Below are positions 9,077 to 37,711 of a DNA stretch of 64,000 nt, piece by piece. Origin of the DNA: Escherichia phage JEP8. A program made the translations under genes and the position numbers. Each line of letters begins with the position of its first letter. The first letter of the stretch is position 1. The stretch lies in sequence record MT764208.1. The stretch is one strand, 5' to 3'. The notes beneath the pieces were generated by a model. That model saw only the letters and a program-made list of their open reading frames with translations. It was not told the origin of the DNA and searched no databases.

Positions 9077-9575
9077 TATCAATACCCTTCAAATCAGTCA
9101 ATAATGCTTTTGGAATACGCGTAACCGTAATATCGGCATTATTCAGAATATCAGCCCAATCACGCCCACCATTTCGATCATATGTGTCGCAGTAATATAT
9201 GTGTTTAATACCACTGTTTGCAATTGCTTTAGCGCAATCTGGACATGGTGAAGCAGTACACCACATACTAGCGCCTTCAATCGACACACCGCTACGGGCA
9301 GCAAACAAAATAGCATTTAATTCAGCGTGGATCTCGTTTTTCTGCGACCATGCACTATGCTCTGGTCGTTTTTCTGGGATCATTTTGCCTTCATCATCCA
9401 GCCAACCGCTTTTATGTGCATGACAGCTACAGTTTTCTTGCCCTGCTGGAGTGCCGTTAAATCCAGTAGAAATGATTCGCCCGTCTTTTTCGATCAGTGC
9501 GCCTACCTTCCACGAAACACATTTAGAGTTCTTTGCGATTAGATAAGCGATCTGCATGTAAGTTTGTGACAACAT
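9060..9575 (-). CDS. cd: dCMP deaminase
   Basis: zinc-binding H-A-E-x-N-A and P-C-x2-C motifs; T4 cd position. Confidence 0.9.
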   Translation of the reverse strand: MLSQTYMQIAYLIAKNSKCVSWKVGALIEKDGRIISTGFNGTPAGQENCSCHAHKSGWLDDEGKMIPEKRPEHSAWSQKNEIHAELNAILFAARSGVSIEGASMWCTASPCPDCAKAIANSGIKHIYYCDTYDRNGGRDWADILNNADITVTRIPKALLTDLKGIDNDGTN

Positions 9576-9596
9576 AATATAATCCTCACATATTAA

Positions 9597-9800
9597 TTAA
9601 CCGTATACGCGAAAGTATTCTACTGATCCGTCGCTATACTGTTTTACATTGAATGTATTCACACCATGACCATTGCTCATAATGACATATACACTACGAC
9701 GCTCATCGCTAAACGGGTTAACTGGTGCGGGTTCAATTTCAACATTAAAACCACGTTTAGCAAGTGCTTCGCCCAATTGCTTGAGTTTATCGGTAAACAT
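9597..9800 (-). CDS. hypothetical small protein (67 aa)
   Basis: ORF between pseT and cd, same orientation. Confidence 0.45.
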   Translation of the reverse strand: MFTDKLKQLGEALAKRGFNVEIEPAPVNPFSDERRSVYVIMSNGHGVNTFNVKQYSDGSVEYFRVYG

Positions 9801-27258: not shown

Positions 27259-27266
27259 TATAAATA
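27259..27266 (+). promoter_or_regulatory. T4-type late promoter TATAAATA for gene 34
   Basis: exact TATAAATA about 28 nt upstream of the gene 34 ATG, followed by AAGGAG RBS. Confidence 0.7.
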
Positions 27267-31068: not shown

Positions 31069-32208
31069 ATGACACAAGATATAGAATTACGCAACACTGG
31101 AATTAGGTTTGCGCATTTCGATGAGGACTCCGCGACATTTACCAGCATTTCAGAAAACAACTCTGTGATGTATAAGCTGGAAGTGCGCGGATCTAATGCG
31201 GATTCTACCAAACCAGCAAGGATTAGATTTAATGGAGTGGAGATCGTTGGCACTGGCTATGAAAATGGCCTAAATTTTAAAGTTCTTACTCCAACTGGAC
31301 AACTACACGAAGAAAAGGTATTCTATGGTCGCGGTGCTGTTTTGGCAATGCGTGATTATCTTTCTTTGCTGAAAGGTGACTATATCATTGCGATGGCAAC
31401 GCATGGAGAATTGTTTGCAGATCCGGTAAGTGATGTTGTATTTTCTAAGCTGGGTTCTGTATCATTCCCGAATCACATTTTGTTACAGCAAATGCCTCGT
31501 GTATCCTATGCAGCAATTTATTCTACGAAAATGGGTAAAATTGTGTGCGAAGGTATGCAAGCGACCCACGGGGAAGGACAAGATTCATCTATACAAATTG
31601 AGAAAGTCTATGATACTATAGATGATCTTGCTATAACAGGAACACCACAACGATTTTTAGATTATCCGGTTGAGTATGTTAGCGAAGATGCCGAACATTT
31701 CGAGCTAATACAATGGCCTCACGATGAGATCAGCGCCCCACTTGAGGATTTTAACATAAAGGCAGGTGACAAACTATCAATATCCTTTGAATTGTTCCGT
31801 GATAGTGCCGCAGCCGCAGCCAACGTAACAGCGCGTTTCTATCACAACTACTTCACCGATGGACAATATAAAACTGGTGTTCGATACAATGCCAGCAAAA
31901 AAGATCAATGGGAAAAGTTTGAAGCCGTCTATACCGTACCGGAAGGAGTTGATAGTGTAGTAACTGGTTGTATCAGATATCCAACCAACTCAAATGAAGG
32001 TATTGTTAAAATTAGAAACATACTAATAACGCCGATCAGTGGAGTCGTCAAAACTACTGGTCCTACTTCATTTGGTGTTAATGGTGTTAGAACAACTCAT
32101 ATTCAGGATAACGGTGATTTTACTAACCCTGTAATGAGTCTTCTTAAGCTGCCTAGAGACAATAAACATATCACATCCAACAACTTTAAAGAGTTCGATG
32201 TTGATTAA
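31069..32208 (+). CDS. 35: long tail fibre hinge connector (T4 gp35 homolog)
   Basis: 379 aa (T4 gp35 372 aa) in the gene 35 position. Confidence 0.8.
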   Translation: MTQDIELRNTGIRFAHFDEDSATFTSISENNSVMYKLEVRGSNADSTKPARIRFNGVEIVGTGYENGLNFKVLTPTGQLHEEKVFYGRGAVLAMRDYLSLLKGDYIIAMATHGELFADPVSDVVFSKLGSVSFPNHILLQQMPRVSYAAIYSTKMGKIVCEGMQATHGEGQDSSIQIEKVYDTIDDLAITGTPQRFLDYPVEYVSEDAEHFELIQWPHDEISAPLEDFNIKAGDKLSISFELFRDSAAAAANVTARFYHNYFTDGQYKTGVRYNASKKDQWEKFEAVYTVPEGVDSVVTGCIRYPTNSNEGIVKIRNILITPISGVVKTTGPTSFGVNGVRTTHIQDNGDFTNPVMSLLKLPRDNKHITSNNFKEFDVD

Positions 32209-32218
32209 CATTTTTTTA

Positions 32219-32250
32219 CAAGCCGATCCATGTGGTCGGCTTTATTTTTA
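32219..32250 (+). terminator. putative intrinsic terminator after gene 35
   Basis: hairpin AGCCGA-N9-TCGGCT followed by TTATTTTTAT. Confidence 0.55.
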
Positions 32251-32370
32251 TACAGTTGGTTAAAATGTAACCAAAACGAAGAAAGATCTTTAGAATAATA
32301 GAAAATTTGTTTCGGTTAAAAATTAGTCAGTGCCTACGGCACGTCGCGAAGCGATATTTTGTTAACATTC

Positions 32371-32378
32371 TATAAATA
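32371..32378 (+). promoter_or_regulatory. T4-type late promoter TATAAATA for gene 36
   Basis: exact TATAAATA ~33 nt upstream of gene 36 ATG. Confidence 0.65.
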
Positions 32379-32411
32379 CTCGGAACTATAACTAATTTTT
32401 GAGGTTACTTT

Positions 32412-33902
32412 ATGGCAGATTTGAAATATGGATCTACTGTAGGTGGATCTCCCATTTGGACGCAAGGAAACTTGACGATCCAGCCAGCAGGGGATCAGCT
32501 TTTCTACAAAGGTCATAAAATCTATACCGCTTTTGATAGACCTTCGGCTACCGATTTTGATGCTGTTAGTGCATCCGAAGGTGGCACATTTCAAAAGCAA
32601 GTTCATTTCGAGGAAGGTTTAAGCGTAGGTAGCGCATCGGCTGGAGAAACCAAAAAGAATGGTATCTTTAAAGGTCAGAGTGATGCTGCTAATTTTGACG
32701 GTGTAAGCTGGGGTTTGCATTCATGGAAGTCAATAGGCTTTGTTAATGCCCGTGATGGCGTTATTATGGCGTATATTGACACCACAACGGGCGAATTTAA
32801 GTCTAAAGGGACTATCGAAGGGACAACCATTAAAGACACAGGTCAACGCGTCTATAGCCCTGTTAATAAACCAACGAATAATGATTTAGATTTGGTGTCT
32901 CGTCGCGGTGATACTCTCACAGGAACATATAATTTAAACACTGTCACTGTTAAACTATCGGTTGATTCTAAATTAATTGCAAGGGAACGTGATTTAATTA
33001 ATTTTGATGCGACTAAGATCTATTATGGTAACGTTCTTGATACGTTGGTCTTCCGAAGTAAAGATGAGCCTACCATTTTTGTTAATGGCAGAGAAGGTCG
33101 TTTTTATCACACCAATAATAAACCAACTAAAGCCGATGTTGGGCTAGGCAATGTCACCAATGATGCACAGGTTAAACGTGCTGGTGATATTATGGAAGGT
33201 AACTTGCAAGCGCCTAGAATGTTGGCGACAAACGATCCTGCTGGTCCGAATGAATTGGTTCGTTTGAGCTACTTTGAGAGAAAATCAATGGTAGCAAATC
33301 CAACCATCATTGGAAACGTTGATTGGAACACTCTTATTAATCGCGGTATCTATCGTGTGGAAAATGCTGGGTCGGGTACTAATAAACCGTCTGATAGCTA
33401 TTATAACGGCGTTTTGATGGTATATCGCCCAGAAGATGCGGTCGGTACTCGTCGAATTGTTCAGGTGTATTATCCTGAATCTATTGACCATCCGATGTGC
33501 TGGCGTTCTTGTTCTAATGAATCATGGACTGCATGGAACTATGTAGATCACCGTAAATTAGCCGATATTCGCTATGTTAACGTAACTGGCGATACCATGA
33601 CAGGACCGTTAACTGTTCCGGCTGCAAACGGTGTTAGAACGGCTAAAACTAACTATAACGGGGATAACTGTTATGCGGCGTTAAGCGGTGCTGATGGTAC
33701 TGCTATGATTCACCGCATTAGTGATATTAAAGGGACCGAAAAGCTGGGGATCACCCATGACTCAAAGGTCGTGTTTTTCCGTTCTAGAAACAATACTCAA
33801 ACCGTGGACCGCTATCAGCTTTATCATGAAGGTAATAAACCTACTCCGGCTGATGTTGGAGCGGTTCCACTTAATGCGGTGATTGATTTTGGTACTTTCT
33901 AA
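32412..33902 (+). CDS. 36: long tail fibre distal connector (T4 gp36 homolog), enlarged
   Basis: N-terminus MADLKYGSTVGGSPIWTQGN...PAGD matches T4 gp36 (MADLKVGSTTGGSVIWHQGN); 496 aa versus 221 in T4. Confidence 0.8.
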   Translation: MADLKYGSTVGGSPIWTQGNLTIQPAGDQLFYKGHKIYTAFDRPSATDFDAVSASEGGTFQKQVHFEEGLSVGSASAGETKKNGIFKGQSDAANFDGVSWGLHSWKSIGFVNARDGVIMAYIDTTTGEFKSKGTIEGTTIKDTGQRVYSPVNKPTNNDLDLVSRRGDTLTGTYNLNTVTVKLSVDSKLIARERDLINFDATKIYYGNVLDTLVFRSKDEPTIFVNGREGRFYHTNNKPTKADVGLGNVTNDAQVKRAGDIMEGNLQAPRMLATNDPAGPNELVRLSYFERKSMVANPTIIGNVDWNTLINRGIYRVENAGSGTNKPSDSYYNGVLMVYRPEDAVGTRRIVQVYYPESIDHPMCWRSCSNESWTAWNYVDHRKLADIRYVNVTGDTMTGPLTVPAANGVRTAKTNYNGDNCYAALSGADGTAMIHRISDIKGTEKLGITHDSKVVFFRSRNNTQTVDRYQLYHEGNKPTPADVGAVPLNAVIDFGTF

Positions 33903-33906
33903 TTTT

Positions 33907-33927
33907 AGCGGGGATTATCTCCCCGCT
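33907..33927 (+). promoter_or_regulatory. stem-loop AGCGGGGA-ttatc-TCCCCGCT between genes 36 and 37
   Basis: 8-bp stem followed by TTTTC; possible attenuator or RNA-stability element. Confidence 0.4.
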
Positions 33928-33972
33928 TTTCTAAATAATGTTATTCTAATAACCGTTTAAGGATTTTATAAA

Positions 33973-36741
33973 ATGGCAGATTTAAGCAGAATCCAATTTA
34001 AACGTACTAGCACTAAAGGCCGTCGACCTGATGCTGGTACGATGAATCCGGGGGAATTGGCAATCAACCTTGCGGATCAATATCTTCTTACTAAAAATGA
34101 TTCCGGTGCTATTATCAATTTAAGTTGTCCTCCGGTTTATGACCGCGATGTTACAATGGCAGGTAAGGTTAAAGGTAATAATTATATCTTAAGTAAAACC
34201 GCTAACTATCTGGAAGATCAGACAGCGCGAGATCTTAACTACTTTGGTGCTTTCCGTACCAATGGTCTTGATGGTTTTCTCGAACTCACGCTAAACGTTC
34301 CTCATTCTTCTGGTGTTCAGCATGGTCGAGGATTTACTTTCCAGTATGGACACACTGGATCGCGTGTAGAAACTTATGGCTATAATAAAGAAGGTCAAAA
34401 AGCATTTAGCTATAAAATGTATCATGAAGGTGATAAACCAACTCCAGGAGAATTGAACGTTTATAGCAAACAAGAAGTTGACCGTATGTTTGTTAAGAAC
34501 GTTAAACTTGCTACATCTCCTAGTGATATCGTTGAAGGCTATTTTAAATTAGCAACTGCAATGATTCCACAAAACGGTCTTAGCGTATTTTTCCGTATTC
34601 ATGGTGGTAACGGATATAACGTTACTGCATACGATCAAGTTGATATTGTAGAAATTGTTATTCGCAGTGGAAATGGTCGCCCTAAAGGTGTTAACGTTAT
34701 TGCATATCGCCGAAATACAAACAAATCATTTGATGTTTTGGCTGTTAATACTTCTGGTGATAACTATGATATCTATGTGAAATATCAGCGTTACACTGAT
34801 AACGTTATTGTTGAATTTGGTAAAAGTGTTGGTGTTAATCTGGTAGTTCATGACGTTCCAGATTTTGTTGCTGATCGTCCTGCTGGCGATAATGTTATTG
34901 GCGGTCGCGCGGTAACTCTTTTTAATACTGAAAATAAACGTGGTGTGTTAAGTTTTGATGATAACACACAAAACAGCTATGACATTGTTCACTTGAGTAA
35001 TGATAGGGGTACAGGACGAAAATATATTCGTAAATTCCGTAGCAACTATAATGAAATGATCTGGCATGAGACGGTTCAAGGTGCTACTTATCGTCTGGCT
35101 ACTGGTGCAACTGATGTTCAGGATATTCTAACCGTTGAATCTGTTAGCTCAATTTCTGGAACTCATAAAGGTAATATTACTTCTGGTCGTATGCTGTTAA
35201 ATGGTGGTAGTAATGTTATTACCTTGCGGCGTCCTGCTGGTCAATCCAACCATATTGCGTTTCAAGATAATCGTACTGGAGATATTACCCGTCAAGGATG
35301 GATCGGTTATGCCAATGCTAATACTAACGTTTTTGAATGGTATAGTGATGTAGGTGGCAGTTCTATTCGTCAACATATCGACGGACAGATCGAATTTCAG
35401 ACAGGTAGCATGAAGCGAGTTTATACTAACGGACAATTCATTTCATTATATGCCGATGGCTTCCGTACTGTATATGGTAACTATGGTTCATGGTGGCGAA
35501 ATGACGGTAGTAACGTTTATCTGATGAGCACAAAATCAGGCGACACTATGGGTCCGTGGAATACCTTTAGGCCGTTCATCTATAGCCTAGCCAATGGTAA
35601 CGTTACATTGGGGGGTAGTGATGCTGGCAACCATTTAATGCGTCTCAATAATGAAAGTAAACGAGTTGAAGTGAACGCAACCACACATCTTGGAAGCAGA
35701 CTGTATTGGGAACGTAACGACGAAGGATCGAAATCTGTATTCTTTGTTAAATCTTGGGGTAATGAAACTCGCGCTCAAGTGTGGGAACTTGCAGACGAAA
35801 CAAGCTATCATCTATATTCTCAGCGTGATTCTAACGGATCGATTCAATTTCGTGTTGCTGGTAGTTTGGAAACTGGAGGCCGCGCCCAGATTAATGGCGA
35901 TTTGGTCGTTACTAATGTTCTTCGTACAAATAACCAAATACAGATTTATAGAGATAACAACAAAGAGATCTGGTTTAAAGATGCTAATGGTACTAACCGT
36001 GGTGTTATCTGGGGAGATGGTGGCGGCAAAATGAGATTGCGTAACTATTCTGGTGGAGAATATGACCATGTGTTCGAAGCTGGTATGATTCGCCTTGAGC
36101 GTGGTTACGCCAATGGACAAGGTGCTGGGTTGATTCGCGGAGAAGTACAAGGTGGAGCATGGTCTGAATGGAGAACTCGCGCTGCTGGCTTATTGGTTGA
36201 CTGTCCAAATGCTCAAACTTCCGCATATAACGTATGGAAAGCGACCAAATGGGGTTTAGACCACATCGCGGCAATGGGTGTTCATGTTCCTAACGGTAAT
36301 GTTGGTAACTCTATTGCGCGTCTGCATGTTGGTGGCACTAACTTTGACTTTAACGCCTCCGGTGATTTCCAGGCAGGTCGTAACGGTAATTTTAACGATG
36401 TTTATATTCGCTCTGATGCTCGCCTTAAAATCAATAAGGAAGAGTATAAAGAGAATGCCACCGATAAAGTTAATCGCTTGACTGTGTACACCTACGATAA
36501 GGTTAAGTCTTTGACGGACCGCACTGTTATCGCTCATGAAGTTGGTATTATTGCTCAGGATCTTGAAAAAGAATTGCCGGAAGCAGTAACAACTTCTAAG
36601 ATCGGCGATCCTGATAAGCCAGAAGAGATCTTAACAATTTCTAACTCTGCTGTCAACGCTCTTTTAATTAAGGCGTTTCAGGAAATGAGCGAAGAATTGA
36701 AAGCCGTTAAAGCTGAACTAGCGGAACTTAAAAAGAATTAA
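33973..36741 (+). CDS. 37: long tail fibre distal subunit / receptor-binding protein (gp37) with C-terminal intramolecular chaperone domain
   Basis: 922 aa in gene 37 position; C-terminal ~110 aa (SDARLKINKEEYKE...IAQDLEKELPEAV...coiled coil) resembles the auto-cleaving S74-type chaperone of T5 pb1 / endosialidases. Confidence 0.85.
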   Translation: MADLSRIQFKRTSTKGRRPDAGTMNPGELAINLADQYLLTKNDSGAIINLSCPPVYDRDVTMAGKVKGNNYILSKTANYLEDQTARDLNYFGAFRTNGLDGFLELTLNVPHSSGVQHGRGFTFQYGHTGSRVETYGYNKEGQKAFSYKMYHEGDKPTPGELNVYSKQEVDRMFVKNVKLATSPSDIVEGYFKLATAMIPQNGLSVFFRIHGGNGYNVTAYDQVDIVEIVIRSGNGRPKGVNVIAYRRNTNKSFDVLAVNTSGDNYDIYVKYQRYTDNVIVEFGKSVGVNLVVHDVPDFVADRPAGDNVIGGRAVTLFNTENKRGVLSFDDNTQNSYDIVHLSNDRGTGRKYIRKFRSNYNEMIWHETVQGATYRLATGATDVQDILTVESVSSISGTHKGNITSGRMLLNGGSNVITLRRPAGQSNHIAFQDNRTGDITRQGWIGYANANTNVFEWYSDVGGSSIRQHIDGQIEFQTGSMKRVYTNGQFISLYADGFRTVYGNYGSWWRNDGSNVYLMSTKSGDTMGPWNTFRPFIYSLANGNVTLGGSDAGNHLMRLNNESKRVEVNATTHLGSRLYWERNDEGSKSVFFVKSWGNETRAQVWELADETSYHLYSQRDSNGSIQFRVAGSLETGGRAQINGDLVVTNVLRTNNQIQIYRDNNKEIWFKDANGTNRGVIWGDGGGKMRLRNYSGGEYDHVFEAGMIRLERGYANGQGAGLIRGEVQGGAWSEWRTRAAGLLVDCPNAQTSAYNVWKATKWGLDHIAAMGVHVPNGNVGNSIARLHVGGTNFDFNASGDFQAGRNGNFNDVYIRSDARLKINKEEYKENATDKVNRLTVYTYDKVKSLTDRTVIAHEVGIIAQDLEKELPEAVTTSKIGDPDKPEEILTISNSAVNALLIKAFQEMSEELKAVKAELAELKKN

Positions 36742-36781
36742 GGAAACTCCCAGGGAAGGGAACTACTAAGGAGAAACGGCT

Positions 36782-37021
36782 ATGGTCTATAATATCGTCA
36801 TTGGCGCTTTGTCTAATTTCGGAATGAAATTATTGTCAAAGTTAATTAGTGAAAAGATGCTCACTAAAATTTTCTTCTATTGCGCTCGTCGTCTTGCGGC
36901 TTATACCAATACGCCAATTGATGATCGTTTTGTGGAAGAACTTTATAAGGAGTTTAATAAAGATCAGTCAGAAGATAGTAACGAGCAAGATAAATCTAGT
37001 GATAGTCAACTACCTAAATAA
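36782..37021 (+). CDS. hypothetical 79-aa protein in the position T4 uses for gp38
   Basis: AAGGAG RBS 8 nt upstream of ATG; amphipathic N-terminus, acidic Ser-rich C-terminus. Confidence 0.5.
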   Translation: MVYNIVIGALSNFGMKLLSKLISEKMLTKIFFYCARRLAAYTNTPIDDRFVEELYKEFNKDQSEDSNEQDKSSDSQLPK

Positions 37022-37054: not shown

Positions 37055-37711
37055 ATGCAAGTTTCTGAAAAAGGGAAAGACTTTGCTATCTCAAATGTCC
37101 TGCGCGCTATTTTCACAACTAAAAGCACGGAGTTGCTCGTACTTCGTGTTTTTGCTGCCGTCGTGTTGTCTATATTGGCATTTGTCGTTTATAGTAAAAA
37201 CGAGTTATTTGCGCTTTATAAAGAGACTCGTTATGAGACTTATGCTCACATTCTCCAGGTAGAGAAAGACCGCAATTTTGATAATGCAGCACAGGAGCAG
37301 TTACAGATAGTTCATGTGTCGGCTGATGCCGATTTTTCTGCTGTTTTTAGTTTTCGTCCGAAAAACCTAAACTATTTTGTTGATTTGGTGGCATATGAAG
37401 GAAAGCTACCACATACAATCGATGAAAAGAATTTAGGCGGATTCCCTATCAATAAAACGAGTGAAGAATATCGTAGACATCTTTTAGGTAAATCATATTT
37501 TACCGATAAAGATTTCCAGTATATTCCATCAAGAGAAAAGAAATTAGAGAATATCGATATAGGTTTCATGTATTCTTGTCCTATATTCAATCTCGATAAT
37601 GTCTATTCTGGTAGTATCGCCATTTCATGGAAGAATAAACCGGATATTGACATTGAGAATTTAGATACTCTTTGCAATCAATCTGCCAGAATCCTCGGAA
37701 GGATTAGATAA
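37055..37711 (+). CDS. t: holin (T4 gpt homolog)
   Basis: 218 aa as in T4 T; N-terminal TM segment; blocks LEQLQIVH.S.EADFSAV.SFRPKNLNYFVD..AYEGKLP, MYSCP.FNLDN.Y.G, ARILGR match T4 holin. Confidence 0.92.
   Translation: MQVSEKGKDFAISNVLRAIFTTKSTELLVLRVFAAVVLSILAFVVYSKNELFALYKETRYETYAHILQVEKDRNFDNAAQEQLQIVHVSADADFSAVFSFRPKNLNYFVDLVAYEGKLPHTIDEKNLGGFPINKTSEEYRRHLLGKSYFTDKDFQYIPSREKKLENIDIGFMYSCPIFNLDNVYSGSIAISWKNKPDIDIENLDTLCNQSARILGRIR

Follow-up and report, generated by a model that had tools for sequence, protein, structure and literature searches.

[quoted passage not shown] The gp36-gp37 junction is also the proposed docking point of the N-terminus of fibritin, and T4 gene 36 is served by a late promoter of its own (PMC3004832). 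The gene described below is already known from another T4-like phage, RB49, the gp36 of which has been annotated at 496 aa since 2003, in record AY343333 as the 'hinge connector of long tail fiber distal connector'. The 'hyperplasticity' of the tail-fibre locus, that of RB49 included, has already been described by Trojet et al. (PMC3157838), and a literature search found the size of the Krischvirus gp36 discussed nowhere.

The stretch of DNA analyzed here (the window) comprises 64,000 nucleotides of Escherichia phage JEP8 (MT764208.1), which megablast assigns to Krischvirus (the RB49-like phages). Its long-tail-fibre genes are arranged in the order gp34-gp35-gp36-gp37-small ORF-holin (Table 1), and the ORF of interest occupies the position between gp35 and gp37. 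According to homology and synteny, this ORF is identified as gp36 of the Krischvirus long tail fibre. Its product is 100% identical to a protein of phage PHB13 and, at the amino acid level, 99.6% identical to RB49 gp36 (AAQ15493). In addition to the end-to-end match with PHROG 16472, PHROG 1425 was matched at an E-value of 7e-55. Pfam gave a weak match of residues 57-154 to PF03903 (21.4 bits vs. a gathering cut-off of 26), and a precomputed match to the same family is present in relatives of gp36 (P0003-P0011). A search of NCBIfam with gp36 gave zero matches, and a PDB sequence search, with whole gp36 and with T4 gp36 as queries, found no gp36 structure. Downstream, the N-terminal 71 aa of the window gp37 share 46% identity with T4 gp37 (E-value 9e-13), and Pfam detects a Gp34_trimer domain (residues 435-537) and a Peptidase_S74 domain (residues 814-873) in this protein. 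A tblastn search of the window with a Krischvirus gp38 adhesin found nothing, which indicates that gp38 sits outside these 64 kb.

Upstream of gp36 lies an exact match to the T4-type late promoter box, TATAAATA. There are only 3 such matches in the window, another being at 27259, just before gp34. Since this count is not above chance, the argument for a promoter is one of position, and the box would probably function as the gp36 late promoter. Hairpins are found on both sides of the gene (Table 1); a terminator scan listed the inner 5 pairs of the one between gp36 and gp37.

Table 1. Features of the tail-fibre cluster and of gp36, with positions in the window and residue numbers (aa) in gp36.
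Feature	Position	Strand	Basis or remark
gp34, 1246 aa	27295-31035	+	T4-type long-tail-fibre cluster
gp35, proximal hinge connector, 379 aa	31069..32208	+	PHROG 1154, E 1e-126
Terminator-like hairpin after gp35	32220-32242		9 pairs + T-run
T4-type late promoter box TATAAATA (candidate)	32371..32378	+	Exact match, 33 nt upstream of gp36 start
gp36, assigned as long-tail-fibre distal connector, 496 aa + stop, ATG start	32412..33902	+	ORF; PHROG 16472 end to end
Module A, aa 1-50, conserved N-terminal adaptor, presumed gp35-binding end	32412..32561	+	T4/RB43/RB16 identity
Module B, aa 51-165, T4 gp36 core	32562..32906	+	BLASTP to T4 gp36; weak PF03903
Module C, aa 166-257, bead unit 'GDTLTG ... 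FYHTNNKPTKADVGLGNV', absent from T4 gp36	32907..33182	+	hhalign
Connector, aa 258-294, GDIMEGNLQAP..., equivalent to T4 gp36 C-terminal part	33183..33293	+	BLASTP
Knob domain, aa 295-380, predicted pyocin-knob fold	33294..33551	+	Profile, AlphaFold2 model, Foldseek
Module E, aa 381-483, short helix + second bead 'GDTMTGPLTVP ... LYHEGNKPTPADVGA'	33552..33860	+	Homologous fibre units
C-terminal tail AVPLNAVIDFGTF, aa 484-496, presumed gp37-joining end	33861..33899	+	Near invariance
8-bp GC-rich hairpin AGCGGGGA-TTATC-TCCCCGCT, then TTTCT, between gp36 and gp37	33907..33927	+	Sequence reading
gp37, distal subunit, 922 aa	33973..36741	+	Pfam; conserved N-terminus, presumed to join gp36; C-terminal intramolecular chaperone domain
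Holin t	37055-37711	+	After 79-aa ORF 3' of gp37

Modular organization of gp36

The original prediction for this ORF was that of a gp36 more than twice the T4 size with a T4-like N-terminus, and both points were confirmed: the length ratio is 2.24 (496 vs. 221 aa), and the protein begins with MADLKYGSTVGGSPIWTQGN, compared with MADLKVGSTTGGSVIWHQGN in T4. By BLASTP, residues 1-171 align with residues 1-184 of T4 gp36 (37% identity, E-value 1e-29), while T4 residues 172-215 (GDTMTGNLTAP...) align with residues 251-294 here (34% identity, E-value 8e-6). The extra ~275 aa are therefore insertions on both sides of the connector and not a tail. This revises the further claim that the additional sequence is a C-terminal half with repeats resembling those of fibre shafts. 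Fibre modules bounded by GDTMTG and NKPT motifs are indeed present, but the added material separates the T4-like core from the conserved C-terminal end, and it also includes a globular domain of the pyocin-knob type. The motif [NDR][KR]P[ST] is found at residues 42, 152, 236, 324, and 475, and GDx[ML]xG at residues 166, 258, and 393; these repeated motifs delimit the modules of gp36. Comparison of gp36 with T4 gp37 and with the window gp37 (BLASTP) revealed no homologous gp37 segments, as only the short YHEG-KPT motif was matched.

Both ends of the protein are conserved. Module A shares 49-57% identity with the N-terminal ~50 aa of T4 gp36 and with those of the RB43/RB16-type distal fibre proteins, which diverge from gp36 beyond this point, and by analogy with the T4 assembly order (PMC3004832) it is presumed to bind gp35. 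Module B is the block most conserved in the gp36 family alignment. In the connector, a helix is predicted at residues 282-290 (AlphaFold2, low confidence). At the opposite end, 11 of the 13 positions of the C-terminal tail are invariant in the family down to 50% identity, and the tail is 100% identical in five close variants; it is presumed to join gp37. A DFG[TY][YF] end is common to the seven gp36 proteins compared (IDFGTF here, QDFGYY in T4, IDFGTY in EcS1 and PKO111, QDFGTY in CC31, EDFGYY in IME08, and LDYGTF in AB-Navy97). The gp36 of the six other genera in this set is 215-237 aa long vs. 496 aa here, which places the present protein outside the ~215-240 aa size of the Tevenvirinae.

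Two of the inserted modules, C and E, belong to a class of bead units of ~90-115 aa, which are bounded by the two motifs and recur in tandem in other fibres. With residues 158-262 as query, hhalign against a diverse bead profile gave a probability of 97.3% (E-value 2e-11) over 88 columns, end to end. With tail fibres of RB43-like phages, T5-like phages, and E. coli prophages, the motif that closes module C (aa 230-265) shares 65-75% identity. The relatives of module E form a very common unit with a GDTMTG-L start and a YH-G-KPT--DVGA end, which is often found in tandem in large tail-fibre proteins; the search with this module retrieved 68 bead units in 136 proteins. The relation between beads C and E is visible at the profile level only, as a self-BLAST of gp36 showed no internal repeats and no C-E signal. 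No curated family in Pfam or NCBIfam covers the bead units, and in a search of the PDB with the bead E profile, the matches were confined to short motifs of gp34-type proteins.

Between the connector and module E, residues 295-380 are predicted to adopt the pyocin-type knob fold. A word-indexed homologue search with residues 266-496 gave only 6 proteins, so an exhaustive HMMER search was needed; this yielded 467 cluster representatives, mostly very large multi-module fibre proteins, some of which carry 2-6 copies of the 295-380 segment. A profile built from 30 such segments matched the R1/R2 pyocin fibres in the PDB (6cl5, E-value 3.3e-5; 6ct8, 3.4e-5; 6cl6, 1.3e-4). Modeling of residues 288-384 by AlphaFold2 with the 30-segment alignment gave a pLDDT of 86.5 and a pTM of 0.79, with five strands of at least 3 residues (DSSP). 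When this model was submitted to Foldseek, the same three structures were recovered as the top matches at a probability of 1.00 (TM-scores of 0.74 for 6ct8, 0.74 for 6cl6, and 0.70 for 6cl5; rmsd 2.6-2.8 Å), and the sequence identity to the R1/R2 pyocin knobs is 21-24%. The AlphaFold2 model of the whole gp36 monomer has a mean pLDDT of 40 and is usable only for residues ~297-380; a fold search with it gave only weak matches, to T4 gp34 and pyocin fibres. Knobs of this kind are trimeric beta-sheet globules, which are also found in T4 gp34 and in saccharide-binding fibres (Buth et al., PMC6116203).

A mosaic boundary runs through the last part of the gene. The nucleotide identity between the window and phage kvi is 91-99% (mostly 96-99%) through gp34 and gp35 and on to about nt 1200 of gene 36, after which it drops to about 70%, and the gp37 proteins of the two phages are only 42% identical. 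Module E lies downstream of this recombination breakpoint, on the same side as gp37. Among Krischvirus variants it is the most variable segment (77% identity vs. 88-96% elsewhere); in several of them, it is the most divergent module while the last 13 residues are invariant. These data suggest that the last ~100 residues of gp36 tend to be inherited together with gp37, as would be expected of residues presumed to act at the joint. On this reading, which is better supported than the proposal, discussed below, that gp36 is more than a spacer, GDTMTG at aa 393-398 marks a recombination boundary, and the last ~100 aa and gp37 form an exchangeable cassette. For fibre engineering, the GDTMTG and YHxxNKPT motifs would offer natural module boundaries, to which the natural breakpoint near aa 400 can be added. 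Distal-fibre exchange in RB49-like therapeutic phages could be made at such sites without loss of the gp35 interface.

The gp36 length series and the distal half-fibre

Alignment with the gp36 of other T4-like genera, the check proposed with the original prediction, shows that the conserved ends are held in common and that the middle varies in length. The lengths of gp36 and gp37 were collected from annotated records and contigs (Table 2).

Table 2. Lengths of gp36 and gp37 in 11 T4-like phages.
Phage or contig	gp36 (aa)	gp37 (aa)
T4	221	1026
EcS1	215	977
CC31	217	870
PKO111	225	1515
IME08	221	1289
AB-Navy97	237	1247
RB49	496	979
This window	496	922
Contig L010	492	841
Serratia phage PS2 ('gp36A')	925	460
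Serratia phage 4S	1001	518

The longest members of the series are collinear with the protein described here. Residues 1-500 of 4S gp36 align with residues 1-492 of the window gp36 (E-value 3e-59), and PS2 gp36A is collinear with the whole Krischvirus gp36 (E-value 1e-42), the matching region being the first 500-519 aa in 4S and PS2. The length series therefore portrays gp36 as a variable-length piece with conserved ends, in which the Krischvirus form stands mid-series, and the 496-aa size is ordinary modular variation of tail fibres. Rather than a 'hinge connector' fixed at ~220 aa, gp36 is better described as an extension piece of about 220, about 500, or about 1000 aa with two conserved docking ends. 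Because its length is variable, size cannot be used to recognize or reject gp36 in T4-like genomes. Among the 11 phages, which are not independent of one another, longer gp36 shows a non-significant trend toward shorter gp37 (Spearman -0.50, p 0.12).

Very probably, the window gp36 is a T4-like structural extension piece, which has reached 2.2 times the T4 size through three modules placed between the core and the tail. By analogy with T4, it would be homotrimeric and purely structural, forming an extension at the top of the distal half-fibre. The N-terminal adaptor (residues 1-50) would join the gp35 knee, and the tail (...IDFGTF) would join the conserved N-terminus of gp37. Between core and tail lie the interchangeable inserts, namely a bead (166-257), the knob (295-380), which follows the connector, and a second bead (381-483). 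Since the docking ends of gp36 and the N-terminus of gp37 are conserved, assembly is expected to be of the T4 type, with a longer gp36 rod. The gp36-gp37 joint would then be located further down the shin, and the fibre would carry at least one extra globule, while the total chain length of the distal half-fibre is within the range of relatives. At ~0.56 Å per residue, an estimate of our own obtained from half of the 1440 Å T4 fibre (PMC3004832) and 1247 aa, gp36 might span roughly 28 nm vs. about 12 nm in T4.

Whether the distal half-fibre as a whole is longer is a separate matter. The original prediction that its geometry differs from T4 holds for the position of the gp36-gp37 joint and for the number of globules. 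It does not extend to length: gp36 and gp37 add up to 1418 aa here vs. 1247 aa in T4, with a range of 1087-1740 aa (n = 11), and RB49 virions are reported to be very similar to T4 in morphology (PMC9569957). As the sum lies inside the range of the relatives, a longer distal half-fibre does not follow from the longer gp36. A substantially longer distal half-fibre (by ~15 nm), with altered reach or retraction geometry, is nevertheless conceivable, given the 275 extra residues at ~0.56 Å each. The gp36-gp37 junction is, moreover, the proposed docking site of the fibritin N-terminus in T4 (PMC3004832). The C-terminal part of the RB49-type Wac is unrelated to that of T4, and a different fibre conformation before adsorption has been suspected (PMC9569957). 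On the other hand, gp37 falls 104 aa short of its T4 counterpart, and a further ~110 aa are expected to be lost with the S74 chaperone domain, the cleavage of which is reported to precede attachment of a gp38 monomer (PMC9569957). With a shorter gp37 and a cleaved S74 domain, the overall length could remain close to that of T4. Together with the chain-length range and the virion morphology, these points render the longer fibre possible but rather unlikely.

More tentatively, the enlarged gp36 could be more than a spacer. A joint placed ~15 nm lower may alter the docking of the retracted fibre on the RB49-type whiskers, or the knob may contact glycans from the side, and either effect could feed into the unusual use of O antigens as receptors by RB49-like phages. 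This proposal is given only a slight probability. The specific form in which the knob is a secondary, side-on carbohydrate-binding site that assists O-antigen recognition is more doubtful still. Knob-like domains do occur in saccharide-binding fibres and tailspikes, the variable knob2 of the pyocins has been proposed as a binding site (PMC6116203), and O antigens are the primary receptors of RB49-like phages (PMC9569957). However, host-range mutations and differences map to gp38 and not to gp36 (PMC9569957). In four of five Krischvirus variants, which have different host ranges, the knob is 93-95% identical, compared with 77% for module E in several of them, and there are 0 non-synonymous changes in the knob relative to RB49. 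The knob would also be positioned near the knee, far from the cell-proximal tip. The preferred reading is still that of a structural extension piece.

Integrity of gene 36

The full-length 1491-nt gene is present in 58 phage records at a nucleotide identity of at least 80%, and in 37 of the 58 at a nucleotide identity of at least 95%. Its metagenomic relatives, 492-508 aa long and as little as 50% identical, align with it from end to end with short in-frame indels only, and the most distant of them (contig L010) has the identical context of gp34-gp35-gp36-gp37-small ORF-holin. By the Nei-Gojobori method, the dN/dS of gp36 relative to RB49 is 0.025; relative to phage kvi, it is 0.07 for residues 1-171, 0.08 for 172-294, 0.09 for 295-384, and 0.17 for 385-496. 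These low values in every segment indicate that both halves of gp36 are under purifying selection. In the other frames across gp36, there is no competing ORF of more than 78 aa. The gp36 C-terminal motif was not found near residue 221, where T4 gp36 ends, and is present only at residues 491-496. The in-frame indels of the relatives, the synteny of contig L010, the dN/dS ratios, and the position of the end motif show that the long ORF is real.

An artefact, in which a T4-sized gp36 has been run together with a distinct gene downstream of it by a sequencing frameshift or a gene fusion, has next to no chance of being correct, and the frameshift, named beforehand as the outcome that would overturn the original prediction, is excluded: the size mismatch with T4 is its sole local support, joined by the naming of 'split' pieces gp36A and gp36B by the annotators of Serratia phage PS2, but the ORF has the same length in 58 independently sequenced phages, the indels are all in-frame, selection is purifying on either side of residue 221, the end motif has a single site with no rival ORF, and the homology of PS2 'gp36B' is to the chaperone region at the C-terminus of the adjacent gp37 and not to gp36.

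Comparison with known systems

The window gp36 resembles that of T4 in its adaptor and core, its GDTMTG...AP connector, its end motif, its gp35 and gp37 flanks, and the late promoter box of its own. T4 gp36, in contrast, is without bead C, the knob, and bead E (~275 aa), and has almost nothing between its connector and the C-terminal motif. RB49 gp36 is the same as the present protein in length and synteny, with two amino acid differences, whereas the gp37 of RB49 (979 aa) is only 60% identical to the window gp37 (922 aa).

In Serratia phages 4S and PS2, gp36 (PHROG 1425) likewise terminates in ...DFGTF or ...DFGVV and is followed by a gp37 with the conserved N-terminus. These proteins have ~420-500 further residues and ~30% identity to the Krischvirus gp36, while their gp37 is only 460-518 aa long. 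In the distal fibres of the RB43/RB16 type (737-820 aa), the gp36-like N-terminus is the first 49 aa (51-55% identity), which are followed by YxxxNKPTxADVGLGNVTNDAQVK-GD, as at the end of bead C. In these proteins, a receptor-binding fibre with an S74 chaperone continues straight on from the adaptor, and there are no separate gp36 and gp37. The same direct fusion of the gp36 adaptor with a complete distal fibre is found in a contig (L011).

With regard to the knob, the R1/R2 pyocin fibres (6CL5, 6CL6, 6CT8) have a tandem pair of knobs near the receptor-binding foot, whereas the window gp36 is predicted to have one knob, near the knee. The globules P3-P5 of T4 gp34 are also related to the knob, though the match to T4 gp34 is weak.

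Mosaic boundary within gene 36

According to a DNA comparison of window positions 33600-36741 with phage kvi, a recombination breakpoint lies within gene 36 at approximately residue 400, immediately 3' of the GDTMTGPLTVPAANGV motif. Upstream of this point (gp34, gp35 and nucleotides 1-1200 of gp36), identity to kvi is 91-99%, mostly 96-99%, and downstream of it identity falls to ~70%; the gp37 proteins of the two phages share only 42% amino acid identity. The final 13 residues of gp36 are invariant. The gap between gp35 and gp36 is unusually long (203 nt), and both this gap and the one 3' of gp36 contain a hairpin and a late-promoter box (see table).

Features around gp36 and in Serratia phage PS2
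Feature	Coordinates	Remarks
gp34 C-terminal end	30559-31035	aa 1089-1246
gp35	31069-32208	
gp35-gp36 gap	32209-32411	
Terminator-like hairpin, then T-run	32220-32242	inside gp35-gp36 gap
Late-promoter box TATAAATA	32371-32378	inside gp35-gp36 gap
gp36-gp37 gap	33903-33972	
Second hairpin	33907-33927	3' of gp36, in gp36-gp37 gap
Late-promoter box TCTAAATA	33930-33937	one mismatch; 5' of gp37
gp37	within 33973-37021	922 aa; Gp34_trimer at aa 435-537; C-terminal Peptidase_S74 chaperone domain at aa 814-873
79-aa ORF	36782-37021	RB49 ORF251w/Dc5 homologue; fills gp38 slot after gp37
'gp36B putative split hinge connector' (record annotation)	9292-9618 of PS2, KJ025957	108 aa

Neighboring fibre proteins

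At its C-terminal end, gp34 shares the layout of gp36 modules D (the pyocin-type knob) and E (the second bead unit): after GDTMVG at residue 1099 comes a stretch with weak similarity to the knob of gp36 (E 0.011), and then IYTKQNKPTAQEIGAV at 1193-1208. In gp35, residues 66-133 weakly match the Pfam family ILEI (interleukin-like EMT inducer), with an E-value of 4.4e-4 and a score of 21 bits, below the cut-off of 27; the same weak match is recorded for the gp35 encoded alongside the most distant gp36 relative (492 aa).

Relatives in other records

The PS2 protein annotated as gp36B terminates in YNAVVGLLVNAVKELRQEVKELRGE, an ending identical to that of the gp37-position protein of Serratia phage 4S. 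Because of this common ending, gp36B looks like a detached C-terminal chaperone end of gp37 instead of a piece of gp36.

A partial protein of 197 aa (P0122), recorded under Bacillus atrophaeus, shares 96% identity with the C-terminal region of the window gp36 and probably represents phage contamination of the B. atrophaeus assembly. On the T4-like Logan contig SRR25399837_185168, two fibre genes (844 and 742 aa) lie in tandem, and the products of both start with the gp36 adaptor (the conserved N-terminal region); each gene is followed on its 3' side by a small ORF (162 and 138 aa, respectively), and AsiA lies further downstream on the opposite strand. The arrangement on this contig resembles a duplication of a distal fibre encoded by a single gene.

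gp37 and the gp38 slot

No gp38 adhesin gene is found 3' of gp37 in the window, and a tblastn search across the whole window using Krischvirus gp38 as the query returned no match. In phage kvi, gp38 is located directly 3' of gp37, whereas JEP8 carries the 79-aa ORF in this position.
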